A DNA stretch of 42,497 nt from an uncultured Polyangiaceae bacterium (GCA_964383995.1 CAYLJT010000001.1:1-42497); one strand, 5' to 3'; shown: positions 1-33,812, counted from the first letter of the stretch. Notes: generated from the sequence alone by a model not told the origin. Translations and numbers: made by a program.

Positions 1-720
1 TTTTTTCTTTTTCTTCTTGTCGCCCTGTTCAGCTGCCTTGGGGGCTTCCTGGGTGGCGTCTGCGGGCGCCTTTGTCTCGGACGCCTTGGACTCCGCCGCG
101 GCGCCTCCCACCTCCGTTGCCGACGCTTGAGCAGGCTCGGCCGCCTTGGGCGTGACGGGAACGGGCACGGTCGGGGAGATGCCAGCCAGCGCCTTGCGCA
201 TGATCCGACCCCTCGCCGAGCCACCGGGGGGCGCGGGCGAGACTCCGGCCGGCTGACCGGACATGACCCTGGACGCCGCCGCGTCGGCCTCCAGCTCGGC
301 GGGCTCGTTGGGCGTCGAAACCTCGCTCTTGGCGGCGAATCCACCCTCCCCGCCACCCTGCACGACGTGGCTTAGCTCGTGCGCGATCAGGCGGTCGCCG
401 CTGGGCGTGTCAGGGTTGTATTTGCCGGGTCCGAACGCGACGTCGTTGCCCTGGGTAAACGCCTCCGCCTGGTGGTCTTTGGCTGCGCTTGCCGCCTTGG
501 CGTCGTCGTGCACACGCACGTCTTCGAAGGACCTGCCGAACGAGCGCTCCATGCGGTCGCGCGTGGTCGGAGGTAGGGGCCTTCCGCCGGACAACGAGGT
601 GCCGGGGCTGCTTGTCTCGGACGTCGTGCTGTCGTGCGCGCTGGTGGCCTCCCGCGCCGGCGTCGGCGTGCTGGGTGCCTTCGTGACAGAAGGCGCTACG
701 CGGGAGGCAGCTTCGGCCAT
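1..720 (-). CDS. DUF4157 (HExxH-containing, eCIS-associated) domain protein, putative injected effector. Only the first 240 codons are present; the C-terminal part lies beyond base 1.
   Basis: Not in the ORF track because it is edge-truncated. Hand translation of the minus strand from ATG 720-718 gives MAEAASRVAPSVTKAPSTPT...LPPTTRDRMERSFGRSFEDVRVHDDAKAASAAKDHQAEAFTQGNDVAFGPGKYNPDTPSGDRLIAHELSHVVQGGG...AAEQGDKKKKKK, with no stop down to base 1. The ME..FG..F..VRVH.D..A...A.AFT.G.D..F..G.Y.P....G..L.AHEL.HV.Q block is the DUF4157 signature as I remember it. The start lies 3 nt after the upstream stop (724-726). Confidence 0.8.
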   Translation of the reverse strand, partial: MAEAASRVAPSVTKAPSTPTPAREATSAHDSTTSETSSPGTSLSGGRPLPPTTRDRMERSFGRSFEDVRVHDDAKAASAAKDHQAEAFTQGNDVAFGPGKYNPDTPSGDRLIAHELSHVVQGGGEGGFAAKSEVSTPNEPAELEADAAASRVMSGQPAGVSPAPPGGSARGRIMRKALAGISPTVPVPVTPKAAEPAQASATEVGGAAAESKASETKAPADATQEAPKAAEQGDKKKKKK

Positions 721-723
721 GGC

Positions 724-1437
724 TCAGTCGGGTAGAATGAGCGGGTTGGGCTTGCGCACAGGGATGGTACGCGCCTTCTCATCACGCTCCGCCGCCCGTG
801 CGAGCTTCTCGGCGACCACGTGCAGGTCGCGCTCCAGCGCCTCTGACTCCTGATCCAGCTTGTGTGCTGCGGCCATGAAGTGCTCTTGCGTGCGCTTGCC
901 GCGCACAAATGCGGAGCGGAGCGCTTCCTCCGCACCTACTTCTATCAGCAGCCCTAGACCTTGGTCGGACCCCATTTCAAAGCGTAGCCGCTCGATAATG
1001 AGATCGTTTCCGCCCAAGACAACGAGCAGACCTTCAGCGGGCGCGTTCAGCTCGAAGACGGCCACCCCAAGTTGGTTCGTCTTTTCTTCGAGCGAAGGCG
1101 GCTCGTTTGGTGAACGCTTCTCGTGAGTCAAGCCCACCCGAACACCGGGAAGCGGCATGCTGGGCCCGTCGCGGTCCACCCCGACGATGCGTACCGCTAG
1201 CAAGCCCGGCGGAACGTTTCGGGGCGCAGCCAAAGCCGCAACACGTATGTCCCTGGCGTAGTCTCGCGCCGCAGCCGCGACGCCTCCCGTCAGCTTGCCA
1301 AGCGCGGCCAGTTCGCGGCTCTCTGACTGCTTGGGCCGCCCTGGCTGTTCGACGGGTTTTGCCGGGTGCTTCCTCTTTTCGGCACCCGCGGTAATCTTGG
1401 AGCGGACACCGGACAGCATCTTCGCAGTGGGCTTCAT
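724..1437 (-). CDS. Hypothetical eCIS-locus protein with a basic N-terminus, a possible small beta-sandwich and a C-terminal coiled coil
   Basis: ORF track 724..1452, which begins at a TTG. I prefer ATG at 1437 (MKPTAKML...) because GGAG sits about 6 nt upstream (TGAACGGAGTCCCCATG) and this start avoids overlapping the upstream stop at 1449. GC-rich third positions. The C-terminus HKLDQESEALERDLHVVAEKLARAAERDEKA looks like a coiled coil. No family recognised. Confidence 0.6.
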   Translation of the reverse strand: MKPTAKMLSGVRSKITAGAEKRKHPAKPVEQPGRPKQSESRELAALGKLTGGVAAAARDYARDIRVAALAAPRNVPPGLLAVRIVGVDRDGPSMPLPGVRVGLTHEKRSPNEPPSLEEKTNQLGVAVFELNAPAEGLLVVLGGNDLIIERLRFEMGSDQGLGLLIEVGAEEALRSAFVRGKRTQEHFMAAAHKLDQESEALERDLHVVAEKLARAAERDEKARTIPVRKPNPLILPD

Positions 1438-1448
1438 GGGGACTCCGT

Positions 1449-4400
1449 TCAACCGAGGTCGAGGTTGTGAACGTTGATGGGACCGGGGACCGCGGCACCG
1501 AGGCCAAAATATTGGTAGGTAGCGTTGTCGCAGACAACCGAGTCCGGCGTGTAACGATTGACATTGAGAAACGCCCCGACGCGATTGTCGCTGACAAGCA
1601 CGGATGTGTAGACGGAGGGATACGCCTTGGCGTACACGGTCGGGTCGTATCCGCCAGTCGCGACGGTGCTTGGGTAGACATAGCCGACGAGCATGTTGCC
1701 CGCTACCCAGTTGCCCTCTACCTGTACGTCCATCGAATATTCGTTGGCGTAAAGAACAGGCACGGCCGCCTGGAGGTCTTCGAGCAGCTCAGCAACCTTC
1801 TTCCGGGTCTTGTCCAATACGAGCTCGAGCACCGATTTGCGTTCGCCCTTCTTGACGGCCACCTTGACGGGCGCGTTGTCAAGAGGCGCTGGCGCGTAAG
1901 ACGCCTCGGGAGCCTCCCGGCCCGACAAGACGCGCATTCGGCGGGCCACCGCCAGCGGGTTGGGACCTGCTGGCGCTGACGCCGGGACCTCGGGAGTCGG
2001 AGTGACATCGAGGAGCGTCGCGTCACGAGGAGGCTTCTTCTGGGGCTTTGCCTCGTCGGTCTTGAATGAGATCAGCTCTTTCAGCCAAGGCGCCTTTTCG
2101 ACAAGGTAGTGGTCCCAGAACTTCTCTGCCGTAAACCCAGGGTTGATGATGACAAGGTCGGTGTCGGGGAACACCCACAGGTCGGACTCGATATAATTGT
2201 CCTCGATCTGCCAGGAGCCGAAGAGCCTGGTAAGTTTGAGGCTCGGAGTGTCGTAGCCCCAGCGGATCGAATTGCCTCGGAGCACTCCGTAGCCGCAAGC
2301 GTCGGCGCTCAAGCCGCCACGGAAATGATTCCCTGACAGGCAAGGATAGTAGACCCCGATGAGCTGCGAGGTTGCCCCTTGAAAGTCGTTGTCTTGAAGC
2401 AGGAGGTCGTAATATGACGCTTCGCCAGTGGCGGCGTCGACGGAGAGCGGCACGATGCCCGTATTCGAACGCACGACGTTTCCAATGAGGCGGCCGTAGG
2501 AGTTTCCGATATACAGGGTGCCCGAAGACAGACTGATACCCGTAGTCGCTTCGAAGGTACCCGAGTAGCCCACCAGATCAAAGTGAACGAGGTTGTTCTC
2601 CACGATGGGCGCCAGAGCTTCCCAAAGCAAGATACCGGTCCGCGGCACGGGACTGCCTGTCTCTGCGGGCTCCACGTTTCCCGTGATCGTGTTGCGCCGG
2701 ACCTCGAAGCCGCCCCCGTGAACCACGACACCTGCCCTTGCGTGGGTTACGGTGTTGTCTTCGATGCGGAAGCTCAACGGGCCTTCGAAGCTGAAGTTGA
2801 AATTACCATCGTTGCCGCTGTTGAGGAGGCTCTGCTCCACCAGCAACGCGGCAATTCCAACGTTGGTGTTGTTGCCGTCCACCGTGTTGTGGTCGACCAT
2901 GATCCGCGCCCATGAGCCGTAGACCACCGGAGGTGGCCCGTTGTCAGCAGGTTGCGCCGCACCAAACAAGATACCGGCGCTGAACGAGATCGCGGTGTCC
3001 GACGCAAGGCCGCCCGAGTAGCCGGCGACGTCTATGCGATTGCTGGAGATGCGTAGGTCACGGAAGTCGGAATACCCGTACTTGTCGGTTGGCAGCGCAG
3101 CAAGGGCCGAATCCGCGCCGAGCACGATGCCTGCCGCGCCCTGAACGCGGCACTGCTCGACGGTGCTATCGTTCACATTCCAGGGCAGATGCAGGGCAAT
3201 GCCCTCGTACGCAATAAGGTAGGTGCCTTCGATGCGTGACTGGTCCAGCTCGTCCATACGAGCGCCGAGGGCAATCCCGAGAAAGACATCGTTTGTGGAG
3301 TTGAACAGAGAAACGGTGCCGAAACGAACAGCGACATAGGCTATGATAACGTTGCCTTCGCTGTCGAAGAGCACCGAATTCTGCAACAAGAGACCCGTGC
3401 CCGCGGTCGGTTGGGCAATTGTGTTGTAGTCGAGGGCCGTCTCCACAATGGCATTGATGGCTACCGGGAGGCTGTCCGAAGGAATCCCGGTGACACTGGC
3501 CCGCACCGTGTCATTGAGCGTCATCGAGATGGTGGAGCCACGCATGTCACCCCGACCGAGCACCGTCGCCGAGACACCGCCGGTTTCGCCCACCAGAACA
3601 CAGCGGTCGATGTGAGCGCCCCACACATAGTCGATCACGACCGGCCACGGGGCAACGATGGTCGTCTCCTCCAAAGAAAGGCTTGGCAGTGGCAGCTTGA
3701 CCTTGATTCCCTTGGTGGTCCACGGGTCCGGAGCCAAGGGATCGACGGTCGACGGATCGCCGTCCCCGATGCGAATCCCGTACTTGCCCTTGCCCGTATG
3801 GACGAGGGCCGAGGACTTCACCGTTAGCGCGCTGTAGGACAAGCCGCCGAGGGGGTAGGTTACGTGGACAATCGAGCCGGCGATTGCCGTCGCATGAACA
3901 ACGAGATCGACGAGGGTGAGCTCGCCAGCGGGCGACTTGGTGTCGGTCGGCCCAATCACCACGAAGCCGTCGGCGCCCTCTCCGTTGCACACGATGACCG
4001 CTTCGGGGCAGCCCTGGATGGTGACCGTCTTGCCGAGGATCTTGACCGACGACTGGAAGGTGTACACGCCCGCCTTGAGGCAGATCGTGCCTCCCGTGGG
4101 GAGATCGTCCACCACCGCTTGCACGCGCGCTGCGTCGTCGACGAGGGACTTGGAGGGCTCCAGGAAGGCTGTGCAACAGCCGCCCTCGTCGACCAAGGTG
4201 TAGAGCTCGTCGATGGCCTCCTGGACGGTGTCGGCGGTCGTGCCCGACTTGGCGCCGTCGTAGGCGATGTCGTCCGCCTCCAGATCGCAGAGGGCAGAAA
4301 ACTGGTGCTCACACCAGTGGTGGAGCAAGAGCGGCGTGGTCGACGTGCTGTACTCCAACAGAGCCAGGGGCGCGAAGAGGCGCTCCGGTCCGTGGGGTGA

Positions 4401-6044: not shown

Positions 6045-6117
6045 CGTCGTTTCCCTTCGAACCGCGTCCTCGAACTGGCGCCCCCAAGGGGAGCCTCAAA
6101 AACCATTACGGGGCCCA

Positions 6118-9516: not shown

Positions 9517-9519
9517 GGC

Positions 9520-14878: not shown

Positions 14879-14886
14879 GGCGTATC

Positions 14887-15366
14887 TCAGGTGATAGGAG
14901 CGGTTGGGGGGCCGGGTGGAACAGGGAAGACGACCATCGTCGATATCGCCAAGAGGTGACAGGCGGAGGCGATTTCTTGCGCCTTCTTGCTGATGTCGCC
15001 GTCGGTGTCGGTGAACGTGGCGGTCATCTGGGAGACCGCGGCGCCAAGGGCCGCTGGGAAGGTCGCCGTGCCGAGAGGAAAGCTCTGCCCCGCGATGTAC
15101 GAGGCGACGGCCATGGCAAGCTGATTTCCGGCGAGCGACGCGCTTTGTGCGCCGAGCGCAGCGCCCGCTTGCGCGGCGAGCTGGCTTCGTCGCGCGAGGG
15201 CCGTGACGCAGGGAAAACCCGCCGCCATCGCGCCCGCAAACCAGGTGGAGACGGCGCCCGCGAACTTGTCCCCGGATTCCATGTTGGAGGACGGAAAGCT
15301 GCCCCCGTCGGGCACGAGCCACTGCGACTCGAGGGAAGATTTCAGGCTGGCGACGACGAGCGGCAT
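14887..15366 (-). CDS. Hypothetical Ala/Gly-rich 159-aa protein between the spike and gp25 genes; not PAAR-like
   Basis: ORF track (MPLVVASLKSSLESQWLVPDGGSFPSS...). GC-rich third positions. The start is 2 nt after the spike stop. No PAAR motifs and no recognisable family. Confidence 0.6.
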   Translation of the reverse strand: MPLVVASLKSSLESQWLVPDGGSFPSSNMESGDKFAGAVSTWFAGAMAAGFPCVTALARRSQLAAQAGAALGAQSASLAGNQLAMAVASYIAGQSFPLGTATFPAALGAAVSQMTATFTDTDGDISKKAQEIASACHLLAISTMVVFPVPPGPPTAPIT

Positions 15367-15368
15367 GG

Positions 15369-17194: not shown

Positions 17195-17211
17195 GGTGCC
17201 TGTTTAGCTCC

Positions 17212-17487
17212 TCACTTGTTGGGCGGAATCAACACCGGTCGGCCCGGGACGATGATGTCGAAGGGGTCCATGACGTCGGAGGCGTCCGCCACCTTCCAGA
17301 ACTTCTTGGGGTCGCGGAAGAAGCGGTGCGCGATGTGGTCGAGGCGCTCTTCCCCCGAGGGGGTGTGGTAGTAGATGCCGGTCGTCTCGGGGATCGTGCG
17401 AAGCTCCAGAGCCTTGACCTCGCGGCCCTGGGCGTCCTTGGTGACCAGGGTCTCGACCTTCGCGTAGCGGCTGGTTTTGTCGATCAT
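17212..17487 (-). CDS. LysM-like / phage tail protein X-like small protein (91 aa)
   Basis: ORF track. YYHTPSGEERLDHIAHRFFRDPKKFWKVADASDV...IVPGRPVLIP follows the LysM/tail-X pattern (Y.V..G.RLD.IA.R.YGDP..WW.IA.AN...L.PG..L.IP). Confidence 0.75.
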   Translation of the reverse strand: MIDKTSRYAKVETLVTKDAQGREVKALELRTIPETTGIYYHTPSGEERLDHIAHRFFRDPKKFWKVADASDVMDPFDIIVPGRPVLIPPNK

Positions 17488-17497
17488 CGGCTGGGTC

Positions 17498-18172
17498 TCA
17501 CAGGGGCAAGATGTTGGTGCTCTGCGACGACGTGGTGTCTAGAAACTGCTTGGCCATCTCGTTGCGCTTCGAGGAGGTGAAGCTCAGGGCGTCCGCCGCC
17601 GCCTTGTTGTCCTTGGCGTCGGACTCACCCATCACCTCCATCTGCACGTCGATCTCCGCTCGCGTCGGGTTGAGCTCGGAGTTGAAGCGCGTCTCGTTGA
17701 CGGCCATGCCCGTGATGCGCACCGGCAAGACGCGCTTCTTACCCCAAATGAACAACACCGTCGGGCGTTGGGGGCGCGCCTTGACAGGCTCCTTGCCATC
17801 GGAGCTTGCGTCGGAGGGGCTCTCGGCGGCGAACAAAAGCCCTTCCAACGCCGATATTTCCGGCAAAATACCGAGCTCGGGCGGCAAGCCCTCGGCGGAT
17901 TGGTGCCGGTCATCGAAGTCGAAGCGCACCTGCACCGAGAACGTCTGCTTCACGGTTCCGCTCGAGGCGTCCGCGCCCTGTTCGCCCTTGCCGCCGCTCT
18001 TCTTTGCGCCCTCGGTGCCCGAGCCGCTCTTGCCTTGCTCGACCTGGAAAGTCCGAGACAAAACTTCCGGGTTGAAGCGAAACGGGATCGTCCGCTTGTC
18101 GCCGTTTGGATAGCCACCCGGTTCGTAGGCGATGAAAGCACCGCGGAGATAGCTCTTCGGGTCGTCGCTCAT
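17498..18172 (-). CDS. Contractile-injection-system tube-like protein (Afp5/Afp7 N-domain type; tube initiator/adaptor), 224 aa
   Basis: ORF track. KRTIPFRFNPEVLSRTFQ and PTVLFIWGKKRVLPVRITGMAVNETRFNSELNPTRAEIDVQMEV match the conserved N- and C-terminal strands of the CIS tube family as I recall them. The ATG at 18172 overlaps the upstream stop (ATGA). Confidence 0.75.
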   Translation of the reverse strand: MSDDPKSYLRGAFIAYEPGGYPNGDKRTIPFRFNPEVLSRTFQVEQGKSGSGTEGAKKSGGKGEQGADASSGTVKQTFSVQVRFDFDDRHQSAEGLPPELGILPEISALEGLLFAAESPSDASSDGKEPVKARPQRPTVLFIWGKKRVLPVRITGMAVNETRFNSELNPTRAEIDVQMEVMGESDAKDNKAAADALSFTSSKRNEMAKQFLDTTSSQSTNILPL

Positions 18173-18444
18173 CGAATCTTCCTCGTCAGGGCTGTGTAAA
18201 GCTCATCGGCCAGTCGTTCGGCGCCGCGCGGCCCGAGCAGCTCGTCGGCAGGGATGACGTCGAGCTCCAGGCGCTCCAGCGCAAGCTCGCGTACGCCCGA
18301 GCGCGCAAAGGGCGAGCTCGCGAGGCGCGTCGCCAGGCGTGTCAAGGCGTCATTCAAGAGCGCCTGTATGTCCATGTCTTTGGGCTCCTCGGACAGCCCG
18401 AGCACGGCAAAAGAGTCCATCGCAACTTCGATGCTGGCTTTCAC
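18169..18444 (-). CDS. Small hypothetical protein (91 aa) translationally coupled to the AAA+ ATPase
   Basis: Part of ORF 18169..18705. The GTG at 18444 overlaps the ATPase stop (GTGA) and is preceded by GAAGGGGG. An alternative ATG lies at 18420. Sequence: VKASIEVAMDSFAVLGLSEEPKDMDIQALLNDALTRLA...ELYTALTRKIR. Family unknown. Confidence 0.5.
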   Translation of the reverse strand: MKASIEVAMDSFAVLGLSEEPKDMDIQALLNDALTRLATRLASSPFARSGVRELALERLELDVIPADELLGPRGAERLADELYTALTRKIR

Positions 18445-20435
18445 GGGACCCCCTTCGGCAAAAAGCGTGAGAGCGCTCCGAAGTCGTCCTTCGAGCGAGA
18501 GAGACCGGCCTTTGCCAGTTCGCGGTAGGTGGCGCGCACCAAGTGCTCGGGGCGCAAAACGCCTTCGGGGTCGGCGGCGGCGAGGTGGGCGACGGCCACA
18601 CCGATGTTGTGGATGTCGCCGCCAGAGAGCGAGAAACGCTCGATGAACAACGACAGATCCAGGCCCCGCTCCCAGCGCTCGCGGCTTGGCAACGAGCGCT
18701 CCCACAACGCGCGACGCATGGACACATCGGGGGACGGCATCTCCAAGATGAAGCGGATACGCCTCACAAAGGCCGTGTCCATGTTGGAGCGCAGGTTGGT
18801 CGTCAGGATGCTTATCCCTTCGAACGACTCCATGCGCTGGAGCAAATAGGCCACCTCGACGTTGGCATAACGGTCGTGGGCGTCTTTCACCTCGGAGCGC
18901 TTGCCGAACAGGGCATCGGCCTCGTCGAAGAGCAAGATGCCGTGGCCCGCTTCGGCCTCTTCGAACACGCGAGAGAGCGACTTTTCGGTCTCACCGATGT
19001 ACTTGGAGACAACCTGGCTGAGGTCGATTCGATAGAGGTTGAGGCCCAGGGTGGATGCCAGGCACTGGGCCGCGAACGTTTTGCCCGTGCCCGGCGTGCC
19101 CGAGAACAAACACGAGAGGCCTTTTCCGAGGGGGCTGCGGCGCAAAAACGTCGTGTCCGCTTCGACCTTGGGCGCGGCCCGGTAGTAGCTGACGATGTCG
19201 CGCAACGCGGACAGCACCCCTTCGGGCGCCACGAGGTCGTCGAAGCTGGCCGTGGACGGGATGTGCGTCACGAGCCGTCCCATGCGTCGCGCACCTTGCG
19301 CGAGGATTTCGCGTGCGATGGCGTCGGCGCCCGGCACGGCGTTCGACGCCGCGCCCGAGAGCCGAGCGCGCGTGGCGGCGGCCCGCGCGGCGGCGCGCAC
19401 CTCGTCGAGGCTCACGCGAAAACGTTGGGCGAGGCGATCGACCTCGCCCGCGCTGGTCACCGTCGCGAAGATGCGGCGGCGCGTTTCGAGCTCCAGATCG
19501 GGCGCGTCCACCACGTCGATGCGCCCCACCTGCGCGTTCGCCGGGACCAACACCACGAGCCGCGGCAGCGTCGCCGACAGGCCGCGAACGAAGGCTTCGG
19601 CAAAGGGCTTGGCGGCGGTCGGCGCAAACAGATCGAGGACCAAGAGCCCGCCGCGCAGGCGGCCGAGCTCCGCGGCGTCGGGCAGCTCGTCGTTGCTCGT
19701 CACGACGAGGGCTGTGCTGTTGCTGAGGGACGCGATGTCGAGGGCGAGCTGCCGCGCGATGCGCGACGCCGTCGCGCGGATCGCGAGGATTTTGCTCTCG
19801 TCGAGGATCGTGAGGGCGCCTTCGACGACGGCCCTGGGCGACGCGATGGTGGTCGACGGCTCTTCGCGGAGCACCGCGATCGGCGTGTGCTCGATGTTGG
19901 GAATGTCCGAGACAAGCTGCACCCGCGCCTCGGCCGATGACAGCCGCAGCGGGTGCGCCGCGAGGGGCTTTTGCGAGGTGACGTCGAAGCGTTCGAGCAG
20001 GCCGAGCCGCTCCGCCTCGTTGCCCGGGAGGGCCGCCGCGAGGGCACGATCGAAGGGCAGGTCCATGGCCGAGACCAGCAGTCGTGCGAAGGAGGTCGGC
20101 GTGACGAGGTGCAGCCGCTCGTCCTCGCCGAGGATGCTGAGCGCCGCGGCGACCTCGGGAAACGCTTCGTTTGCAGCAGCAAGCAACACCAGCCACGCGG
20201 CCTCGTGGCTCATCCCGAAGCGCCCCGTGAGGCGGCCCCAGTGGGGGTCGTCGGATTGGGCAAACCCCTTCATCTTCAGGCCGAGGGCGCGCAGTCGGTC
20301 GCGGCCGTGGCGGAAGCCTTGGGTGACGTCGATGTCATCGTGGTCGCGCTCCGCCACGGCGCACTCGGCGCCGAGGATGGCGAGCTCACGCATCAGCGCG
20401 AGGCCCGGCCGTTCGAGCAGCGCGCGCCCGCTCAC
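18441..20435 (-). CDS. AAA+ ATPase, Afp15/Pvc15-type eCIS assembly ATPase (about 664 aa)
   Basis: ORF 18441..20723, trimmed to GTG 20435, which overlaps the DUF4255 stop (GTGA) with GGAG 8 nt upstream. An alternative ATG lies at 20393. Walker A: FSGTPGTGKTFAAQCLA. Walker B: GILLFDEADALFGKR. Sensor region: ILTTNLRSNMDTAFVRRIRF. Confidence 0.9.
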   Translation of the reverse strand: MSGRALLERPGLALMRELAILGAECAVAERDHDDIDVTQGFRHGRDRLRALGLKMKGFAQSDDPHWGRLTGRFGMSHEAAWLVLLAAANEAFPEVAAALSILGEDERLHLVTPTSFARLLVSAMDLPFDRALAAALPGNEAERLGLLERFDVTSQKPLAAHPLRLSSAEARVQLVSDIPNIEHTPIAVLREEPSTTIASPRAVVEGALTILDESKILAIRATASRIARQLALDIASLSNSTALVVTSNDELPDAAELGRLRGGLLVLDLFAPTAAKPFAEAFVRGLSATLPRLVVLVPANAQVGRIDVVDAPDLELETRRRIFATVTSAGEVDRLAQRFRVSLDEVRAAARAAATRARLSGAASNAVPGADAIAREILAQGARRMGRLVTHIPSTASFDDLVAPEGVLSALRDIVSYYRAAPKVEADTTFLRRSPLGKGLSCLFSGTPGTGKTFAAQCLASTLGLNLYRIDLSQVVSKYIGETEKSLSRVFEEAEAGHGILLFDEADALFGKRSEVKDAHDRYANVEVAYLLQRMESFEGISILTTNLRSNMDTAFVRRIRFILEMPSPDVSMRRALWERSLPSRERWERGLDLSLFIERFSLSGGDIHNIGVAVAHLAAADPEGVLRPEHLVRATYRELAKAGLSRSKDDFGALSRFLPKGVP

Positions 20436-21574
20436 GGCTCGATCTCCAGCACGATGAAGGGCGTAAATTGCACGGGGATGCCGACGCCCATGTCGAGGCG
20501 CGCGGCGACGCGGTAAACGCCTGAGGCGAGGCCCGTCGGGGTGACGTCGAGCGACGTCGCGGTCACCGAGGCAGCCGTAAATGGTTTGACGTCCGACGGA
20601 TCGAAGATGCCGCGATCGGGCCAGAAGTAGACCTCGACGACATTGCTGAGCCCCTGGCCCGTCAGCGTGAGGGCGCCGCTGCCTTGGCTGTGCGAGAACG
20701 CGGGCGGTCCGTCGAGCATCCATGCGCCCGTGCTTTGCACCTGGATTTCGTAGGCCTCGGAGGTGAGCTGACCGGAGCTGACGGTGACCTTGTGCGTGCC
20801 GGGGGCGATGGTGCCGATGGGCAGTTGCAGCCGCACGCCGCGATCGGGCTCGGCAGGGTCGACGGGCACCACCGCACCGCTCAGCACCGTGAAAAGGTTG
20901 GTGCCCACAGCAACCGTATCGGCAGCCGCGCCAAAGGGCCCGTCGATGCGGATGAACGCGTCTTCGGCGGGGCGCGCGGGCACGATGCGAGAGATGACCG
21001 GACGGCTGCGCGCGGTGGGGCCGCTGAGGTTGATGCCGAGGGGCGAGACCACGGCGCCGAGGCTCGTGGGCGGCAGCGCGCTCTTGATTTGAACGGGCCA
21101 GACTTCGTAGAGCAAGAACGGCCGATGTTTGATTTGCAGCGGGGAAAACAGCTTTTCCATCAAGTCCGGCGTCATCGGGACGAGGGACGTGTTGAGCTTG
21201 CCTTCACCGAGCGCAGGGGGAATCGCCAGGGCGGCGAGGTCGAGCACTTGCTTGTCGTGGAAGGCCTTGGCCACTTCGCCGAGCAAGCGATGCGCACCGT
21301 CCGCGTCTTTGGTGGGCGCCTCGCCGTAGGTCGTGATCATGAAAAAAATCGAAAGCGTGATGGGCGGCGAAGTGCCGCTGCCATCGGCGTTTCGCAGCAG
21401 ACCGTCGTTGCGGTGCGACGGATGCTCCATGACGTACATGAGCGACACGCGGACCTCTTCGGTCGTCAGCAACGTGTCCGGTGGCGGCGCCACCACCACC
21501 GACGGTGAGACCGTGGCCTTGAGGAAGGTGCTCAGCACGCTCGACGCGTGAAAGAGGTTCGTAAAAAGCGCCAT
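20432..21574 (-). CDS. DUF4255 (Pvc16/Afp16 N-domain) tail terminator/cap protein with a C-terminal Ig-like (IPT/TIG-like) extension, 380 aa
   Basis: ORF 20432..21643, trimmed to ATG 21574 (GGGGAGG upstream, 2 nt after the upstream stop). MALFTNLFHASSVLSTFLKATV...VRVSLMYVMEHPSHRND...PPITLSIFFMITTYG...AHRLLGEVAKAFHDKQVL matches the DUF4255 pattern. The last ~190 aa contain two beta-rich segments: RIVPARPAEDAFIRIDGP...THKVTVSS, and ALTLTGQGLSNVVEVYFW...VTATSLDVTPTGLASGVYRV. Confidence 0.85.
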   Translation of the reverse strand: MALFTNLFHASSVLSTFLKATVSPSVVVAPPPDTLLTTEEVRVSLMYVMEHPSHRNDGLLRNADGSGTSPPITLSIFFMITTYGEAPTKDADGAHRLLGEVAKAFHDKQVLDLAALAIPPALGEGKLNTSLVPMTPDLMEKLFSPLQIKHRPFLLYEVWPVQIKSALPPTSLGAVVSPLGINLSGPTARSRPVISRIVPARPAEDAFIRIDGPFGAAADTVAVGTNLFTVLSGAVVPVDPAEPDRGVRLQLPIGTIAPGTHKVTVSSGQLTSEAYEIQVQSTGAWMLDGPPAFSHSQGSGALTLTGQGLSNVVEVYFWPDRGIFDPSDVKPFTAASVTATSLDVTPTGLASGVYRVAARLDMGVGIPVQFTPFIVLEIEP

Positions 21575-21576
21575 CG

Positions 21577-22845
21577 TCAGAACCTCCCCGGGATGGTGGA
21601 GCCGAACGGCAGACCCGGATCGATGCCGTGGGCGCGGGGCCAAACCACCGAAGGCTCGGCCACCTGGGGCGCGCCCTTGGTCTGAATCTCCACGCGGCCG
21701 ATGGAGATTTTGATGCTCGGCGTCGCGGGCTTGGGGGCTGCCGCCGGGGTCGGACGACGTTCGGCGCGGGGCGTGACCGTCGGCTGCGGCGCTGTCTTCG
21801 CCGCGGACGCAGGCTTCATCCGTTGGCCCTCGGGCTCCCGTGCTCGCACCGCGGGCGCCGCCTTGTCTCGGACACGGGGCTCGGGCGCGGCCTTGAGCGG
21901 CGCCGGCACGGGCATCGGCGTCGGGCCCTTGGCAGGAGCCTCGGCGGGCCTCCCGGGCGCCTCTGGCGGGCCCTTCGCCGTCGCGGCGAGCCGGCGCTCA
22001 CGGAGCTCTTCTTCGGCGCGCTGCAAGCGCGCGGCGTAGCTCTCGCGGCCCTCCGCGGTGGGACGATCGACGGGCTGCTTCGGTGCGCCTTCCGTCGGCT
22101 CGCGCGGCCCGGCGGCGGCGACCTTGGGGCCCCGATCCACCGGCCCCGGCTGCGCGCCACGCGCCTCGTCCTGCGCTGGCCTCCGCGCCGGGTCGGGGCT
22201 GGTTTGAGCTGCAACGAAAGGCGACATCACGCGCTCCACCACCGTTCGCTCGACGCGCTCCACGACGCGCACGGTCTGCTCGCGCAGGGCGGGCGAGGCC
22301 GCCCTCGGCAGCGTCTTCGCCTCGCCTTTGGGCCCTTCGTTCGGCCCCATCGGCGCCGCGTAGATGCGGCTCTCCGGCCGCGTTTCGCTCGGCCTCGGGG
22401 CTCCTCGGCTTTCGGAGCGAGGCGCCTCCGCGCGCCCATCATCGGTTCGCCGCGCTCCATCGCCGAGGCTCGACGCGCGTGGAGCTCGCGCTGCCTGCGG
22501 CTCGGGCAGTGCGGGCTCCGCCCCGGGCTCTCGCGGACGAGCTTGTCGATCGCCGGGCGACGTAGGGCTCGAAGCGCGGTCTTCGGCGTCGTCGACGCGA
22601 TCGAGGGCCGGGCGGGGTGAGATCGCGCGTGCGGGGCGCGCGGGCTCCAAGACCGCGTCGTTCGGGGGCAGCTCGCCGGCCTCTTCGAGCGGGAATTCGC
22701 CTTCATTTCGCGCGTCGCGCGGCTCGGCGGAGGGCGCCGTCTCGCGCACGACAGCCGTGGTGGCGGCCCCGCGCGCGGCCGTCTTCGCGGGGCCGCTACG
22801 CGCCGATTGCAGAGGTCCGCTCGTGATGCGGTCGAGGGCACCCAT
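21577..22845 (-). CDS. Pro/Ala/Arg-rich low-complexity protein (422 aa) in the tape-measure (P2 gpT / Afp14) position
   Basis: ORF track. The ATG at 22845 is preceded by GGAAGG and lies 3 nt after the upstream stop. Composition is dominated by P/A/R/E, with one short helical segment (REQTVRVVERVERTVVERV, YAARLQRAEEELRERRLAA). C-terminus: ...SIKISIGRVEIQTKGAP. The tape-measure assignment rests on synteny only. Confidence 0.55.
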   Translation of the reverse strand: MGALDRITSGPLQSARSGPAKTAARGAATTAVVRETAPSAEPRDARNEGEFPLEEAGELPPNDAVLEPARPARAISPRPALDRVDDAEDRASSPTSPGDRQARPREPGAEPALPEPQAARAPRASSLGDGARRTDDGRAEAPRSESRGAPRPSETRPESRIYAAPMGPNEGPKGEAKTLPRAASPALREQTVRVVERVERTVVERVMSPFVAAQTSPDPARRPAQDEARGAQPGPVDRGPKVAAAGPREPTEGAPKQPVDRPTAEGRESYAARLQRAEEELRERRLAATAKGPPEAPGRPAEAPAKGPTPMPVPAPLKAAPEPRVRDKAAPAVRAREPEGQRMKPASAAKTAPQPTVTPRAERRPTPAAAPKPATPSIKISIGRVEIQTKGAPQVAEPSVVWPRAHGIDPGLPFGSTIPGRF

Positions 22846-22848
22846 GGG

Positions 22849-23022
22849 TCAGCCTTCCAGCCCGAGGCCCGCGACGAGGGCCCGCGTGTCGTCGACATCG
22901 ATGAGCTCTAGGTAGGCAAGGCGTCGCCGCAGCGGCAGGCGCAAAATGGCGTCTTCGCTCCAGTGGTACCGCGTTGCCAAGCGGTGGATGTCTTCGAGCA
23001 TGCGGCGACCTCGTGTCGTCAT
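22849..23022 (-). CDS. Small 57-aa ORF, either an independent product or the -1 frame extension of the upstream gene; possibly DUF6760-like
   Basis: C-terminal part of the 22849..23784 frame: MTTRGRRMLEDIHRLATRYHWSEDAILRLPLRRRLAYLELIDVDDTRALVAGLGLEG. The ATG at 23022 overlaps the upstream TGA (ATGA). No Shine-Dalgarno is visible. The YHWSE..IL.LP..RR..YL motif recalls small conserved eCIS-locus proteins (from memory, unverified). Confidence 0.55.
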   Translation of the reverse strand: MTTRGRRMLEDIHRLATRYHWSEDAILRLPLRRRLAYLELIDVDDTRALVAGLGLEG

Positions 23023-23768
23023 CTCGGCAAAAAAAAACCGGCCACATCGAACGGCTCTGAAAAGGCGTGAGCGCACGCGGCGCAGACCACGTCCATCGCG
23101 AGCTCGGCCTCCGGCAGGGCGCCTTCCAAGGCGGCTTCGAGAGCCCTTCTCACCGCCGTTGGCAGCGCCTGCGCGAACGCGTCGTCGAAGGGGCCTTCGC
23201 GGTCGCCGTAGCGGAGGAGCGTGCGCGCGATGAGCCACGTGCGCTTCTCGGCCGCGGTCTCGAGGGCCTCGTCGAGCAGCTCTTCCTGGTCCCCTGCGGT
23301 GGGCAGGCGCAGCTCCGCGCGCACATCGTTGGTGGTCAAAACATTCAACCGGCGCTGCCCGACGTCGCCCGAATAAAGAGGCAGATCGCTCAGCTTGAAG
23401 TCGACCTCGTTCTTGGCCCGGCACGCGGGGCAGGTGACGTCCGCGTTGACCGTGTCGCCAAACGAAAGGCGCCGTACGAGCACCAGGGCCAGGTCGCGCT
23501 CGGCGACGGTCATGTCTCGGACGCGCTTGAGGGCCTCGCTGTGATCGTGGCCCGGTGGCACCAAACAGCGCGCGACGATCTCGTTGCAAAGGCGCGCGGT
23601 GTTCGGGTCGCCCTGATGGCGTTCGACGACCTCTTCTTCGAAGCCGGTCATCGAACGCAGCGCGAGCGTCGAGCGCGTGCCGCCATCGACCCGCTTCGCG
23701 TTCGCGGCGCGCCGCGTGGCAAAGGGGTTCTCGATGCGATCGGTGCTCGAACGCTCGTCCGCCTTCAT
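23019..23768 (-). CDS. Post-tube 249-aa protein with two CxxC pairs (zinc-ribbon-like), in the tail/baseplate assembly chaperone position
   Basis: ORF track. The ATG at 23768 is preceded by GAGGAG. Contains VTCPACRAKNE and VVCAACAHAF. It sits between the tube gene and the tape-measure candidate, like P2 gpE or lambda gpG. It may belong to what annotation pipelines call the 'T4 family baseplate hub assembly chaperone' (memory only). Confidence 0.6.
   Translation of the reverse strand: MKADERSSTDRIENPFATRRAANAKRVDGGTRSTLALRSMTGFEEEVVERHQGDPNTARLCNEIVARCLVPPGHDHSEALKRVRDMTVAERDLALVLVRRLSFGDTVNADVTCPACRAKNEVDFKLSDLPLYSGDVGQRRLNVLTTNDVRAELRLPTAGDQEELLDEALETAAEKRTWLIARTLLRYGDREGPFDDAFAQALPTAVRRALEAALEGALPEAELAMDVVCAACAHAFSEPFDVAGFFLPR
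23022..23040 (-). promoter_or_regulatory. Candidate -1 programmed ribosomal frameshift site (T9G; T_TTT_TTT and T_TTT_TTG in zero-frame register)
   Basis: The minus strand reads GTG GCC GGT TTT TTT TTG CCG AGA TGA (plus-strand A9 at 23029-23037). The -1 frame continues TTT GCC GAG ATG ACG... into the 57-codon ORF. Position and heptamer resemble phage P2 E/E+E'. Confidence 0.4.
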
Positions 23769-23802
23769 GACTCCTCGTGCTCACCCCAAAGGGGGCAAGC
23801 GG

Positions 23803-24303
23803 TCAGGTTTCGACCGGCTCGGTCAGCGAAGCATCCCGCTGGAAGCCTTCGTGCTCGATCTTGATCATGGTGATCGCGACCGCGTTCGCGTTGGCATCCA
23901 TCTCGGGCGTCGCCTGGTACTCGCTCACCCAGGCGCGTCGCACCTTGTAGCGAAGGACCGGCGTGCCCTGCAGGTTCATCACCTCGATGAACAGGTCCTT
24001 GCGGTACTTCGCAAGCGACATCGCCGCGGAGCCCTCCAGGTTGTTCACGAGGTTCGCCCAGTCTTCGAAGGTTGTGTCGTGGGTGAGCCCCGCTTCCATC
24101 GTGATCGCTTCGAACTTCGTGCGACCAGGCATCTTGCGGACGATCGAGGGATCGCCCGCCTCACGCCATTCGATGGCCTCGGTGGTCTTCTTGAGCGCGC
24201 CCATCTTCGAGAGACCCGCGACGGCGCGGCCGTCGAGGACCACTCGAAAACGGAAGTTTTTGTAGGGATCGCTGCGGTGCGTGTTGACGGAGAACTGAGC
24301 CAT
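23803..24303 (-). CDS. Contractile tail tube protein (T4 gp19 / Afp1 / TIGR02241-type), 166 aa
   Basis: ORF track. MAQFSVNTHRSDPYKNFRFRVVLDGRAVAGLSKMGALKKTTEAIEWREAGDPSIVRKMPGRTKFEAITMEAGLTHD...LRYKVRRAWVSEY is a textbook eCIS/PLTS tube sequence. Confidence 0.92.
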   Translation of the reverse strand: MAQFSVNTHRSDPYKNFRFRVVLDGRAVAGLSKMGALKKTTEAIEWREAGDPSIVRKMPGRTKFEAITMEAGLTHDTTFEDWANLVNNLEGSAAMSLAKYRKDLFIEVMNLQGTPVLRYKVRRAWVSEYQATPEMDANANAVAITMIKIEHEGFQRDASLTEPVET

Positions 24304-24315
24304 GGTGGTTCCTCG

Positions 24316-25878
24316 CTACGCCTTCTGATTCACGATCTGGCTGAGCTTGACGACGACGAACTCGGCGGGGCGGAGCGGCGCGAAGCCGACCCACACGTTC
24401 ACGATGCCTGCGATCTGATCGATCTCAGGCGTGGTCTCCGAGTCGCATTTGACAAAGTAGGCGTCGCGGGACGTGGCCCCGGCGAAGGCGCCCTGCCGGA
24501 AGAGCTGCTCCATGAACCCGCCAATGGCGAGCCGGAGGTTGCTCCAAAGCTGCTCATCGTTGGGCTCGAACACCGCCCACTGGATGCCGTTGTAGATGCT
24601 CGTGCGCAGGAAGATGGCCGTGCGCCGCACGGGCACATAACGCCACTCGCTCGACGGCTGCATGGTGCGCGAGCCCCACACCACATTGCCTCCTTGGGGC
24701 AGCGAGCGGAGCGCGTTGATGCCCAAGGGATTGAGATCGTCTTGGTGCGTGTCGAGAAGTTTGTACTCAATCTTTCTCACGCCGAGCAACGTGGCTTCGA
24801 GCCCCGCGGGCGCCTTCCACACGCCGCGTCGTTGATCGGTGCGGCCATAGAGCCCGGCGACGAACGCCGAGGGACCCATGACGACGGTGGGATCGCGGCC
24901 GTTGCCGATCGGATCGCTAATCTCCAGCCACGGGAAATACACCGCGCCGAAGTTCGTCTTCGTCATCGACGCGTACTCGGTGACCGTGTCGCTCGTGGCC
25001 TGGGTAGGCGTCACCGAGGACTTCTGACGAGGCATGTCTGCGACACAGAAGAGGTCCTGTCGCGCCCGGTTTTCGGCGTAGTCGAGGGCGACCTGCTGAA
25101 TCGTGCGGGTGTTCGCGTCGGTGTCCGACGTGTTGGCGAAGCGAGCGGGGCACACGAGGAGGCTCGCGTCGGTGACCTCGTCGAGGCGCTGAAAGAGGTT
25201 GGAGTCGAAGTCGGTCGGGCCCATCGTCGTGCCGCCGCCAGCGCCGCCGCTGAGCGTGACCGGGGAGGCGTCCGTGGCCGGGACCGTGGTGGCCACCGCG
25301 GGGGGCGCGATGTTGGTGTTCCAACGAATGTAGAGGCTCCGGAAGAGCACGTCCGGCGCGTAGTTCTCGTCGGACGCGTCGAAGCTCAGGCGATCCCACG
25401 TCTCGACCGCGGTGAACGTCAAAGCGCCCGGCAGCCGATAACGAACATCGATCTTGAAGCGGCTCGCCGAGCCGTCGCTGGAAGGCCCGAACTTGATGTC
25501 GACGCTGTCTCCCCACGACCCCGGCGACGAGGCCGCGATGCTGACCTGATTGGGCGAAACCCCGACGGTGCGCGTGCTGGTGGCCACCGTGTCGGTGGTC
25601 TTGATCGCCCGAAGGATATAGGCCGTCGTGCCACCGTTGCCGAAGTACGCGTCCATCGCATAACGGAGCTCGACCCGCTCCGCGACGCCGGAGACGTCCC
25701 TCTCGTAGCCTCCAAAGGCCCTCTCGAAGTCGGCCTTTCCTTTGATTTTCGTGGGCTCGAAAGGACCCCTTTCAGTTTGACCCACAAAGATTGTCGTCGA
25801 CGTACCGGCTCCTTCGATGGAGCGTGCGCCGCTCGGAATCTCTTCGACGTAAACACCCGGATGCAAGCGTGCAGGCAT
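24316..25878 (-). CDS. Contractile tail sheath protein (Afp2/Pvc2-type), 520 aa
   Basis: ORF track. The N-terminus MPARLHPGVYVEEIPSGARSIEGAGTSTTIFVGQTERGP and the C-terminal part ...LNPLGINALRSLPQGGNVVWGSRTM...WRYVPVRRTAIFLRTSIYNGIQWAVFEPN are hallmark phage sheath motifs. Confidence 0.95.
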   Translation of the reverse strand: MPARLHPGVYVEEIPSGARSIEGAGTSTTIFVGQTERGPFEPTKIKGKADFERAFGGYERDVSGVAERVELRYAMDAYFGNGGTTAYILRAIKTTDTVATSTRTVGVSPNQVSIAASSPGSWGDSVDIKFGPSSDGSASRFKIDVRYRLPGALTFTAVETWDRLSFDASDENYAPDVLFRSLYIRWNTNIAPPAVATTVPATDASPVTLSGGAGGGTTMGPTDFDSNLFQRLDEVTDASLLVCPARFANTSDTDANTRTIQQVALDYAENRARQDLFCVADMPRQKSSVTPTQATSDTVTEYASMTKTNFGAVYFPWLEISDPIGNGRDPTVVMGPSAFVAGLYGRTDQRRGVWKAPAGLEATLLGVRKIEYKLLDTHQDDLNPLGINALRSLPQGGNVVWGSRTMQPSSEWRYVPVRRTAIFLRTSIYNGIQWAVFEPNDEQLWSNLRLAIGGFMEQLFRQGAFAGATSRDAYFVKCDSETTPEIDQIAGIVNVWVGFAPLRPAEFVVVKLSQIVNQKA

Positions 25879-25979
25879 GACTTATCCCTTCCGAAAGCCT
25901 TCTACGAAGCCGATTCGTGTGAGCCTACCTTCGGCGAAGCCCGAAGCGTGCCCGCACCAAACGCACTTCGCGTGTGCAC

Positions 25980-26369
25980 CTAGCTGCCCAAAACCACGTA
26001 CTCGATAGTCCCGTCGGCGGTTGGACCGGCCCCCGCGGGTGTCAATAGAAGGGCGCTCAGCGACGTCGTCCCGGCCGCCACAGGCGCCCAGTGCATGAAC
26101 AGGCCGCCGGGGGCGATCTCGTAGAGATCGGTGCCGTTCGCGTTGATTTGAACACCAACGTCGACATCAAGGTTGTTTCGAACGGCTATGCCCCGCGCGT
26201 CCGTCGAGCCGCCAAAGGGCACATCGACGGCGGTCGTCGAGCCCTGCGCCACATCGAGGGTTCCCATGCTGACTGCCGAATACGAAAAAGACACGCCGAA
26301 CGCCTGAGCCACCGGGCCCGACGCCGGCGGGGTGAACGTCAGAGTGGAGCTGAACGTTGCGCTGCCCAT
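25980..26369 (-). CDS. First gene of the operon: beta-rich 129-aa hypothetical protein
   Basis: ORF track. The ATG at 26369 is preceded by AGGAAGG. GC-rich third positions. Ser/Thr/Gly/Val-rich with no cysteines and no signal peptide. No family recognised. Confidence 0.6.
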   Translation of the reverse strand: MGSATFSSTLTFTPPASGPVAQAFGVSFSYSAVSMGTLDVAQGSTTAVDVPFGGSTDARGIAVRNNLDVDVGVQINANGTDLYEIAPGGLFMHWAPVAAGTTSLSALLLTPAGAGPTADGTIEYVVLGS

Positions 26370-33473: not shown

Positions 33474-33812
33474 CGCGTTCGGTCACCACGGCGACCCGGA
33501 GCGCTGTCCTGTCCTGTGCGCGAATTGTCCGAGACTTCACGTCTGCGAGCACGCCCGGTGCGCCCAGCGGCCGCCGCGCAAAAGCGAGGGCGCCTTGCCC
33601 TCGACGCTCACGCACGCGCCATTTCGTGCCGATCGAACGTAAGGTCAAGTACCCTCGTGGTGGGGATGTCTCGGAAAGACAAAGTGGTGTGGGCCGGCGC
33701 CGGTGCCCGCGGCAAGACCCGCTCGGCTTTTTTTTGCGAGGCTCGCGAGAATGATGAAAAAAAATGCTGACCGTGCTACGACACGACAATCACCGCAGGA
33801 CAATTGCGATTG

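Follow-up and report, generated by a model that had tools for sequence, protein, structure and literature searches.

We found that the longest homopolymer in a 42,497-bp contig from an uncultured Polyangiaceae bacterium (GCA_964383995.1, CAYLJT010000001.1:1-42497), a run of nine T's (T9) within an assembly chaperone gene, is probably a recoding site, at which either a −1 ribosomal frameshift or transcriptional slippage would join two open reading frames (ORFs). The entire contig is the window analysed here (GC content ~65%), and the tract lies in an operon for a contractile injection system (CIS) that spans positions 1-26369 on the minus strand and holds 21 ORFs, the fourth and fifth of which (g04 and g05, 249 and 57 aa) meet just beyond the tract (Table 1). 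In standard reading, translation would end at a stop two codons after T9 and give a 249-aa chaperone; a −1 slip of the ribosome on T_TTT_TTG would carry it on into g05 and give a 306-aa chaperone, and by an alternative route the RNA polymerase would add one U on the T9 run, with the same 306-aa fusion as the product. The long form would carry the ancestral three-helix C-terminal domain of the protein. By analogy with G/GT of phage lambda and E/E' of phage P2, the tract would fix the ratio of short to long chaperone, and both products would act in hub or tail assembly.

The earlier note on this DNA had described g04 as a zinc-ribbon protein and g05 as a separate ORF. Two CxxC pairs are indeed present in g04, but the two ORFs represent one ancestral chaperone gene of family PF12322 and not two unrelated genes, since their alignments to the family are collinear and g05 matches the C-termini of orthologues. 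At the junction the minus strand reads GGT TTT TTT TTG CCG AGA TGA, with the 57-aa ORF in the −1 frame. We sampled 80 lineage-II CIS loci from many phyla through a sheath alignment, which together with the window and four close relatives (L001-L004) make 85 sources, and with an iterated hidden Markov model (HMM) a g04 homologue was detected directly 3' of the sheath and tube genes in 74 of these 85. The 64 complete distant orthologues are single ORFs ending in ...W-S-E-x-x-I-L-x-L-S-P-x-R-R-x-x-Y-L-E-L; no slippery heptamer occurs near the 3' end of any of them, and T-runs at the junction site of unsplit orthologues reach at most 7 nt and are mostly of 2-3 nt. An HMM of these 64 single-ORF proteins aligns g04 to positions 24-205 (113 bits) and g05 to positions 210-249. 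When the two are fused in silico by a −1 shift at the T-run, the product matches positions 25-249 without a break, as a single domain, with 180 bits compared with 113 for g04 alone. On its own, g05 matches the C-termini of 60-70 single-ORF orthologues, including those of Streptomyces. A structural model of a natural long-form homologue (P0245; predicted local distance difference test score 91, predicted template modelling score 0.80) has a long helix beginning at the junction and three helices in the extension. The predicted fold matches predicted myovirus structures named 'baseplate hub assembly protein / gp51 / gp26' (E-values down to 3e-13, template modelling score ~0.6), in line with the Pfam assignment and with the UniRef family name 'T4 family baseplate hub assembly chaperone'; a Foldseek search of the PDB with the same model returned nothing (best E-value 0.4).

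Upon comparing loci, we observe that the 19-nt core TTTTTTTTTGCCGARATGA (T9-GCCGAR-ATGA) is invariant in nine of them, with the flanking codons varying freely and the synonymous sites around the core near saturation. The nine T9 loci are the window, L001, L002, L085, L086, L087, L149, L121 and L128, two of which come from cultured strains with complete genomes. Compared across the nine, the g05 frame shows a proportion of synonymous differences (pS) of 0.56 and a ratio of nonsynonymous to synonymous differences (pN/pS) of 0.44, compared with 1.15 and 1.84 for the other two frames, and by this measure the g05 frame is under purifying selection. Given how often this operon uses each codon, 1.4% of Phe-Phe-Leu triplets should read TTT-TTT-TTG, and T_TTT_TTG is the same heptamer as that of P2 E/E' (PMC3091744). 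A metagenome pattern scan for the 19-mer gave 60 matches, of which two are real junctions (L121 and L128), the rest being chance occurrences in lower-GC DNA.

A second form of the junction is found outside Myxococcota. In an actinobacterial Solirubrobacteraceae locus (L148), ten T's (T10) are followed by CGAGCTGA, the same −1 shift is needed, and the junction holds no ATG, GTG or TTG for a separate start; this is the one locus at which an out-of-frame T10-type junction was read as DNA. Among the best 120 protein clusters, ~100 stop 2-3 codons after the FF run (45 of them with FFFSS*, as in L148, and ~50 with FFLP[RSK]*), ~10 are in-frame long forms and 2-3 read through in the wrong frame. The chaperone family has 6,736 members at E ≤ 1e-3 in a 50%-identity representative library, and of the best 135 representatives whose alignment extends to the profile end, 57 (~42%) are short and 75 long, the distant short forms having been read at the protein level. 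On balance we consider it somewhat more likely than not that T9 and T10 are a programmed recoding site that sets the short/long ratio and that is used by ~40% of representative clusters, in Myxococcota and Actinomycetota.

The arrangement closely resembles that of phage tails. P2 makes E and E+E' by a −1 shift at TTTTTTG without a downstream RNA structure (PMC3091744), and lambda makes G and GT likewise by −1 frameshifting, the ratio of the two products being essential for tail assembly (PMC5009743). As in these phages, the chaperone gene and its extension stand between the tube gene and a gene resembling that of a tape measure (Table 1), so that the gene order fits the position of a two-product chaperone; T_TTT_TTG lies near the 3' end, a −1 extension follows without downstream RNA structure, and the two products, predicted here, would share their N-terminus. 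The earlier note had drawn the E/E' analogy from gene order, and it holds for the position and for the slippery-tract junction, but not for the protein, which by Pfam and by predicted fold is a T4 gp51/gp26-like PF12322 protein with zinc ribbons and not a member of the gpG/gpE family. Two further differences are that the tract here is a full T9-T10 and that most orthologues in other phyla are long-form single ORFs. Full-text literature searches yielded no paper linking CIS or PF12322 with frameshifting or slippage, although large recoding databases may list the site.

Several observations weigh against recoding at the tract. No conserved stimulatory RNA structure was detected downstream of it (the alifold consensus is empty) or upstream, and ribosomal and transcriptional slippage can therefore not be chosen between; the T9-T10 run is long enough for slippage of the RNA polymerase, which is on record in type III secretion genes of Shigella (PMC5009743). 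The conserved ATG of g05 overlaps the stop of g04 (ATGA), so that the 57-aa part could be made separately. Finally, both an in-frame allele (T10, L150) and an other-frame allele (P0310) exist, which implies that the tract varies at the DNA level and that phase variation is possible.

The separate production of the 57-aa part can be developed into a full alternative, in which g04 and g05 are truly split, the small protein is made by termination-reinitiation at ATGA and associates non-covalently with the large one, and T9 is the relic of an indel. The overlapping ATG is conserved in all nine T9-type loci, six other junctions of the operon also use 4-nt overlaps, and gene callers annotate a separate ORF of 48-59 aa in the relatives. 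A relic, however, would not keep nine invariant T's amid near-saturated synonymous sites (pS 0.56), and TTT and TTG are minority codons in this operon. Moreover, this ATG is not preceded by a Shine-Dalgarno-like motif, unlike the other six overlaps, L148 lacks any start codon at its junction while 45 of the 120 closest clusters end in the same manner, and in the model the junction would fall at the start of one continuous helix. We therefore regard a true split as unlikely.

Phase variation by slipped-strand mispairing, with the T-tract as a DNA switch for the full-length chaperone and, through it, for particle assembly within populations, appears more doubtful still. Runs of 9-10 identical nucleotides are characteristic of contingency loci, and alleles differing by one T are present in public data: P0310 (Geodermatophilus sp.) is one T shorter and reads through in the wrong frame, L150, inspected as DNA, is a long form with T10 (3678-3687) in an otherwise identical context, P0282 is another allele of altered length, and long forms with FFFAEM or FFFFEL also exist. 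Tract length is thus polymorphic, in nature or in assemblies. Against a switch, out-of-frame lengths outnumber in-frame ones by ~10:1 in over 100 independent clusters, and of 11 junctions read as DNA only that of L150 is in frame; the other ten include those of two complete isolate genomes. Tract length is also fixed per context, with T9 before GCCGAR and T10 before CGAGC rather than scattered, and the stop that ends the zero frame two codons further on is conserved. An assembly or sequencing error, or a recent pseudogene, might be suspected in a homopolymer, where errors are frequent, on a contig from metagenome data, but this is refuted by the recurrence of the same T9 in nine independent assemblies, the complete genomes CP079946 and CP150363 included, and also sits badly with purifying selection on the downstream frame and with the large share of short forms among family representatives, so that we give it practically no weight.

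We also considered other origins of the T-run. It is not a by-product of the conserved FF(F/L/W) motif, which unsplit high-GC orthologues write as TTC TTC TGG with runs of 2-3. Nor is it the U-tract of an intrinsic terminator or attenuator, as in most loci the 40 nt upstream are no more structured than shuffled sequences (z from −0.98 to +2.0, above 0 in 9 of 11 loci); no consensus hairpin precedes the run across loci, and a marginal 5-bp stem is seen in the window only.

If the recoding reading is correct, the tract would be the first recoding site on record in a non-phage CIS and a new, widely conserved chromosomal case in bacteria, of which, to our knowledge, few are known outside dnaX, prfB, insertion sequence (IS) elements and phage tails. 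It would tie the assembly of CIS to the two-product scheme known from phage tail chaperones, with the logic of G/GT and E/E' having been reinvented independently in an unrelated chaperone fold. Systems expressed in another host or re-engineered would then fail or mis-assemble unless both products were supplied, and annotation as a 249-aa protein plus a 57-aa 'hypothetical' would be misleading for anyone expressing or re-engineering a lineage-II system. An uncharacterised gene, probably including the Streptomyces homologue sco4251, would become an assembly factor. The conserved slippery tract is in our view of greater consequence than the operon, which adds one member to a catalogued family.

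Table 1. Genes and features of the CIS operon in transcription order, with positions in the window; the last gene is cut by the contig end.
Feature	Position	Strand	Evidence
g01, 129-aa conserved protein, first gene	25980..26369	-	No family match; 124-158-aa homologues at 41-44% identity directly upstream of the sheath in all close relatives; absent from distant loci
Contractile sheath (Cis2/Afp2-4 equivalent), 520 aa	24316..25878	-	PF04984 1e-10; PF17482 6e-10
Inner tube protein (gp19/Cis1), 166 aa	23803..24303	-	PF06841 1e-39; 88-92% identity in relatives
g04, T4 gp51/gp26-like baseplate-hub assembly chaperone, zero-frame short form, 249 aa	23019..23768	-	PF12322 T4_baseplate 2e-13; two CxxC zinc-ribbon motifs
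Slippery tract T9+G (T_TTT_TTG), proposed recoding site	23028..23037 (T9 = 23029-23037)	-	Two codons before the g04 stop
g05, 57-aa ORF in the −1 frame, chaperone C-terminal helical domain	22849..23022	-	Chaperone HMM positions 210-249, E=2e-16
g06, 422-aa Ala/Pro/Arg-rich protein, candidate tape measure	21577..22845	-	No Pfam match; composition A18 P16 R13
Cap / tail terminator (Pvc16_N = DUF4255, Cis16/Afp16), 380 aa	20432..21574	-	PF14065 1e-19, residues 13-171; 48-49% identity in relatives
AAA+ ATPase (Cis15/Afp15), 664 aa	18441..20435	-	PF00004 2e-25; 61-62% identity in relatives
g09, 91-aa conserved protein	18169..18444	-	No family match; 47-51% identical same-position homologues in close relatives only
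Tube-like baseplate tube initiator (CIS_tube; Cis7/Cis1b-like, P2 gpU position), 224 aa	17498..18172	-	PF19266 5e-7; 83-85% identity in relatives; found in 30 loci
g11, 91-aa LysM/tail-X-like protein, weak assignment	17212..17487	-	Phage_gp53 E=0.15 only; family in 23 loci including Streptomyces
Baseplate hub, gpD/gp27-like (N-terminal half of split VgrG/Afp8), 381 aa	16049..17194	-	PF05954 Phage_GPD 3e-6, below the Pfam cut-off
Spike, gpV/gp5 OB-fold (C-terminal half of split VgrG), 227 aa	15369..16052	-	PF04717 Phage_base_V 4e-26
g14, 159-aa Ala/Gly-rich protein, in the slot holding PAAR in other systems	14887..15366	-	No family match; 57-64% identity in close relatives only
gp25/gpW sheath initiator (Cis9), 122 aa	14510..14878	-	PF04965 6e-13; 67-81% identity in relatives
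Baseplate wedge J paralogue 1 (Cis11a/gp6-like), 802 aa	12105..14513	-	PF04865 Baseplate_J 2e-10; matches baseplate J-like chain of PDB 9gtp, 2e-10
Baseplate wedge J paralogue 2 (Cis11b), 862 aa	9520..12108	-	TIGR02243 baseplate assembly protein 5e-46, above cut-off; 25-29% identity to paralogue 1 in cross-matches
gpI/gp7-like wedge protein (Cis12), 1132 aa	6118..9516	-	PF09684 Tail_P2_I 4e-5, above cut-off; 46-51% identity in relatives
Tail fibre, eBAP5 class, 1531 aa	1449..6044	-	PF20129 DUF6519 1e-15; weak NosD/beta-helix
g20, 237-aa variable protein 3' of fibre	724..1437	-	No family match; no sequence similarity to the 167-170-aa ORFs in the same slot of L003/L004
DUF4157 (eCIS_core) cargo, N-terminal 240 aa only, cut by contig end	1..720	-	PF13699 3e-31 at residues 48-124, HELSH

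The operon is very probably a lineage-II, subtype-IIa-like CIS of an uncultured Myxococcota member, with the recoded chaperone as a proposed part of it. Profile searches gave family matches for 14 of the 21 operon genes, among them the sheath, tube, DUF4255, gp25, gpV, Baseplate_J and DUF4157 assignments of the earlier note, with Phage_GPD falling below the threshold in the window protein and present as a Pfam match in its homologues from relatives (69-71% identical). The proteins of 129, 57, 422, 91, 159 and 237 aa had no family match in these searches, and a PDB sequence search found none for the 249-aa chaperone, the 159-aa protein, CIS_tube, the gpI-like protein, the cap or the 91-aa LysM-like protein. 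From their families, the sheath and tube would form the contractile shaft with the Pvc16_N protein as its cap; CIS_tube, the small LysM-like protein, the gpD hub and the gpV spike would form the central baseplate; gp25, the two baseplate-J paralogues and the gpI-like protein would form the wedges; and the AAA+ ATPase and the DUF4157 protein would be the loading ATPase and the cargo. Each wedge may be a J1-J2-I heterotrimer, matching the 2 x Cis11 + 1 x Cis12 of Streptomyces. The LysM/tail-X reading of the 91-aa protein g11 finds some backing in its family, in which 3 of 17 members match Phage_tail_X (best 0.002), but not in the window protein itself (Table 1). The cap carries a C-terminal extension of ~200 aa beyond Pvc16_N, of unrecognised fold and kept in the relatives (376-400 aa).

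Thousands of sheath homologues were retrieved, at 60-80% identity within Myxococcota, and the named ones at 60-67% (a Polyangiaceae metagenome-assembled genome (MAG), Sorangium, Corallococcus and Cystobacter) indicate a Myxococcota host, as the earlier note had supposed in speaking of a myxobacterial-type genome. Relatives were picked by sheath or fibre homology and comprise the Polyangiaceae MAG JADJRH01 (L001), JGI Ga0606646 (L002/L003), Corallococcus sp. EGB (L004/L085), Sorangium So ce1335 (L086) and a Myxococcaceae MAG (L087); a contig scan with the 862-aa protein alone gave no relatives, and the sheath-alignment scan returned distant phyla and not Myxococcota. Gene order is identical in five relatives, down to the small unknown ORFs; identity is lowest for the fibre (39%) and highest for the tube (92%). 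The flanks of these relatives differ from one another and hold no phage head, terminase or lysis genes. On these grounds the locus is a chromosomal CIS and not a prophage remnant. Three of the small proteins, g01, g09 and g14 (129, 91 and 159 aa), keep both their place and their sequence in every close Myxococcota relative and went undetected in the 80 distant lineage-II loci; they are therefore clade-specific accessory components. In L001 we observe, ~8 kb upstream of the CIS, a canonical type VI secretion system (T6SS)-type VgrG of 645 aa (88-2025, minus strand; Phage_GPD, base_V, Gp5_trimer_C and DUF2345) with PG_binding and phospholipase D (PLD)-like neighbours, and this Polyangiaceae MAG thus has both kinds of injection machinery.

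That the locus is the tail module of a P2-like prophage, perhaps defective, or an R-type tailocin is suggested by a gene order paralleling FI-FII-E/E'-T ... X-D and V-W-J-I-H and by the P2-type slippery heptamer. The same P2/R-pyocin parallel, pointed out in the earlier note, is also the standard lineage-II (IIa) layout with its split VgrG and two Afp11 (PMC6899500). Against the phage origin stand the CIS-specific Pvc16_N cap, AAA+ ATPase, CIS_tube and DUF4157 cargo and a sheath that groups with CIS sheaths far above those of pyocins or T4, and no capsid or other head, portal, terminase, integrase or lysis genes were found by family searches of the window proteins or beside the five relatives. 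The proposition is extremely improbable and effectively refuted by the presence of the cap, ATPase and DUF4157 together with the lack of a lysis cassette. The note's description of a tail-only contractile injection system is thereby borne out, as is its view of the ATPase, cap and cargo as non-phage additions: the markers of extracellular contractile injection systems (eCIS) that are absent from phages and canonical T6SS are all present (1e-19 for DUF4255/Pvc16_N, 2e-25 for AAA+ and 3e-31 for DUF4157), alongside the eCIS core of a sheath with a gp19-type tube and of gp25, Baseplate_J and a gp27/gp5-type hub and spike. No T6SS membrane complex or ClpV was found in the window or in the flanks of relatives.

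Published criteria for subtype IIa include a split afp8, two copies of afp11 and divergent afp12 and afp13 (PMC6899500). The window has a split VgrG/afp8, two afp11 genes (Table 1) and divergent afp12 and afp13 (Tail_P2_I and DUF6519), which points to lineage II, subtype IIa. Upon ranking solved sheaths by similarity, the IIa structure 9ezm comes first (haloarchaeal CIS, 5e-76), followed by the IId structure 8bky (8bky/8bl4, Streptomyces CIS, 1e-63) and then Ia, IIb and Ib. Some points tell against this placement: PAAR (afp10), expected for IIa, has no match among the 21 operon proteins, and the subtype call follows from gene content and the ranking of solved sheaths and not from a tree. Surveys have catalogued thousands of CIS loci, Myxococcota are rich in multi-fibre loci, and the fibre class and cargo domains seen here are already classified; the locus is a further myxobacterial member of the catalogued CIS family and not a new class.

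The closest characterised relative is the membrane-bound haloarchaeal CIS of Halogeometricum borinquense ('archaeal T6SS', clade IIa), a contact-dependent machine (PMC11566945). The two share the lineage-II gene set, two Cis11, a split spike and the lack of a recognisable Afp14-type tape measure. They differ in that the haloarchaeal cluster has PAAR/cis10 and is linked to a conserved gene for a putative anchor with six transmembrane (TM) segments, a kind of gene not found at the window locus, whereas the window system is bacterial and has a DUF6519 fibre and DUF4157 cargo. The second-closest sheath is that of the Streptomyces coelicolor system CISSc (clade IId; PMC10066040, PMC12237407), which also supplies the matching baseplate J (9gtp) and whose wedge of 2 x Cis11 + 1 x Cis12 parallels J1+J2+I of the window. 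CISSc is a cytoplasmic machine mediating cell death. In contrast to the window system, its VgrG is one fused protein, cis11 is present once, fibres are lacking, and it has TM effectors and the membrane protein CisA. The Streptomyces loci L044, L066 and L068 likewise carry a chaperone homologue 3' of the sheath and tube, but as a single ORF without T-run. In the sheath operon of CISSc, sco4253-4251, the gene sco4251 is treated as coding for an uncharacterised protein (PMC10066040); since it follows sheath and tube, it probably codes for the chaperone homologue. The lineage-I systems Afp, PVC and AlgoCIS share the sheath, tube, cap, AAA+ ATPase, gp25, J, spike and fibre, and differ by gene order, a fused VgrG, PAAR, the Afp14 tape measure, Afp6 and a much lower sheath similarity (1e-45 or weaker). 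The Afp/PVC gene list (PMC6899500) has no entry for a gp51-like chaperone, lineage-I loci themselves not having been searched.

With regard to the mode of action, we lean slightly, judging from the gene content, towards a particle that is released, binds its targets through the fibre and acts extracellularly. The term eCIS in the earlier note is apt for the superfamily gene set, but 'extracellular' is an assumption, because the two closest characterised systems are membrane-bound (haloarchaeal) and cytoplasmic (Streptomyces), and this, as well as the lack of any holin, endolysin or release gene in or beside the operon, counts against release. It is a real possibility, although a somewhat improbable one, that the machine fires inside its producer, either membrane-anchored like the archaeal T6SS or, as for the Streptomyces CIS, in the cytoplasm with regulated cell death as the outcome; both of the nearest solved sheaths come from these systems (PMC11566945, PMC10066040). 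The giant DUF4157 proteins of relatives have a strongly hydrophobic segment (Kyte-Doolittle hydropathy over a 19-residue window, KD19, ~2.1), and the cytoplasmic cell-death variant would fit the developmental lysis of myxobacteria. A large fibre with a beta-helix domain of receptor-binding type, however, speaks against such a mode; the Streptomyces system has no fibres. In addition, hydropathy of the operon proteins reveals no convincing TM segment (maxima ≤1.74), hence no multi-pass or CisA-like bitopic membrane protein, and no membrane protein is conserved beside the operon in relatives, whose upstream neighbours all differ. As its nearest characterised relatives serve as a contact-dependent weapon in archaea and as a cell-death device in Streptomyces, the locus is a reasonable candidate for the question of predation versus developmental lysis in myxobacteria.

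Turning to the remaining parts of the particle, g06 would, from its position and architecture, be the length-determining tape measure. The last 60-80 aa of g06 recur as a conserved stretch at the end of the ORF following the chaperone gene in at least 33 loci, and these ORFs measure 244-1135 aa. We observe such a low-complexity ORF of variable length with a conserved C-terminal domain 3' of the chaperone across lineage II, which the literature describes as having no Afp14-type tape measure, and this ORF looks like the missing length ruler of lineage II.

The spike ends in N[TQS]H[TQ]HPTGVGPSGPP, conserved in four loci (the window; L001 19976-20659; L002 19731-20414; L004 37-720), and its PDB matches are only to the OB domains of spikes from AlgoCIS, the thylakoid-anchored CIS (tCIS), CISSc and T6SS. 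The HxH motif appears to resemble the iron-binding apex of P2 gpV-type spikes, and such an end may make a separate tip protein unnecessary.

The 1531-aa beta-helix protein of the earlier note was recovered as a member of an already catalogued eCIS fibre class, eBAP5 (DUF6519; PMC12923769), which it resembles in its N-terminal baseplate-attachment region with DUF6519, its C-terminal beta-helix (pectin-lyase-like) and its place directly after the wedge genes. Fibre homologues of 1360-1500 aa at ~39% identity occur in Sorangium, Corallococcus and Polyangiaceae, with the C-terminal ~230 aa not conserved. The variable protein g20 is possibly a fibre chaperone.

The description of the operon as complete does not stand, as the DUF4157 gene runs off base 1, where the operon side of the contig is cut; an exact-sequence look-up of the 1531-aa protein, aimed at a longer overlapping contig, gave no match. 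What remains of the cargo is a 47-aa Ser/Thr/Pro-rich stretch followed by DUF4157 with HELSH, the C-terminal part lying outside the window. Homologues in L003 (15016-20613, 1865 aa) and L004 (14932-20247, 1771 aa) are 65% identical over ~800 aa, rich in Ala, Gly, Lys and Glu, without a recognisable toxin domain, and followed by 1-2 more ORFs; they are unusually well conserved for a polymorphic effector. The DUF4157 cargo of AlgoCIS is built of an N-terminal domain, DUF4157 and a C-terminal domain (NTD-DUF4157-CTD), has a disordered N-terminus and is loaded in the tube lumen.

Finally, the operon is tightly packed, as the earlier note had reported: all its ~21 co-directional minus-strand genes are present at the positions it gave, with spacers in transcription order of 101, 12, 34, −4, 3, 2, −4, −4, −4, 10, 17, −4, 2, 8, −4, −4, 3, 73, 11 and 3 nt. 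The seven 4-nt overlaps it listed were read directly, with ATGA at 23019/22, 18169/72 and 16049/52 and GTGA at 20432/35, 18441/44, 14510/13 and 12105/08. Third-position GC is 0.78-0.92 across the operon ORFs except the 237-aa gene. A promoter scan 5' of the operon found nothing, a scan of the whole window found no Rfam families or tRNAs, and no neighbour or regulator is conserved beside the operon, the upstream genes differing in every relative. The right flank (26.4-42.5 kb) is of housekeeping character, with an acyltransferase, a sigma-70 region 4 protein, DUF4920, DUF433, GH94, GAF, a GMC oxidoreductase and DUF362. The sigma-70 region 4 gene (28092-28988, plus strand; 298 aa, this region being its sole match) lies ~1.7 kb from the operon start and is probably unrelated to CIS regulation, as it is not conserved beside the relatives. 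Further along, a plus-strand ORF of 1057 aa with GMC-oxidoreductase domains (37198-40371) overlaps an antisense ORF of 889 aa without family match (37900-40569, minus strand); the former is a real gene and the latter a typical high-GC artefact. The only other long A/T runs in the window besides the chaperone T9 are two opposed 8-nt homopolymers, T8 at 33728-33735 and A8 at 33757-33764, in a non-coding stretch of ~440 nt before the DUF433 gene, and this pair may be a bidirectional terminator region.

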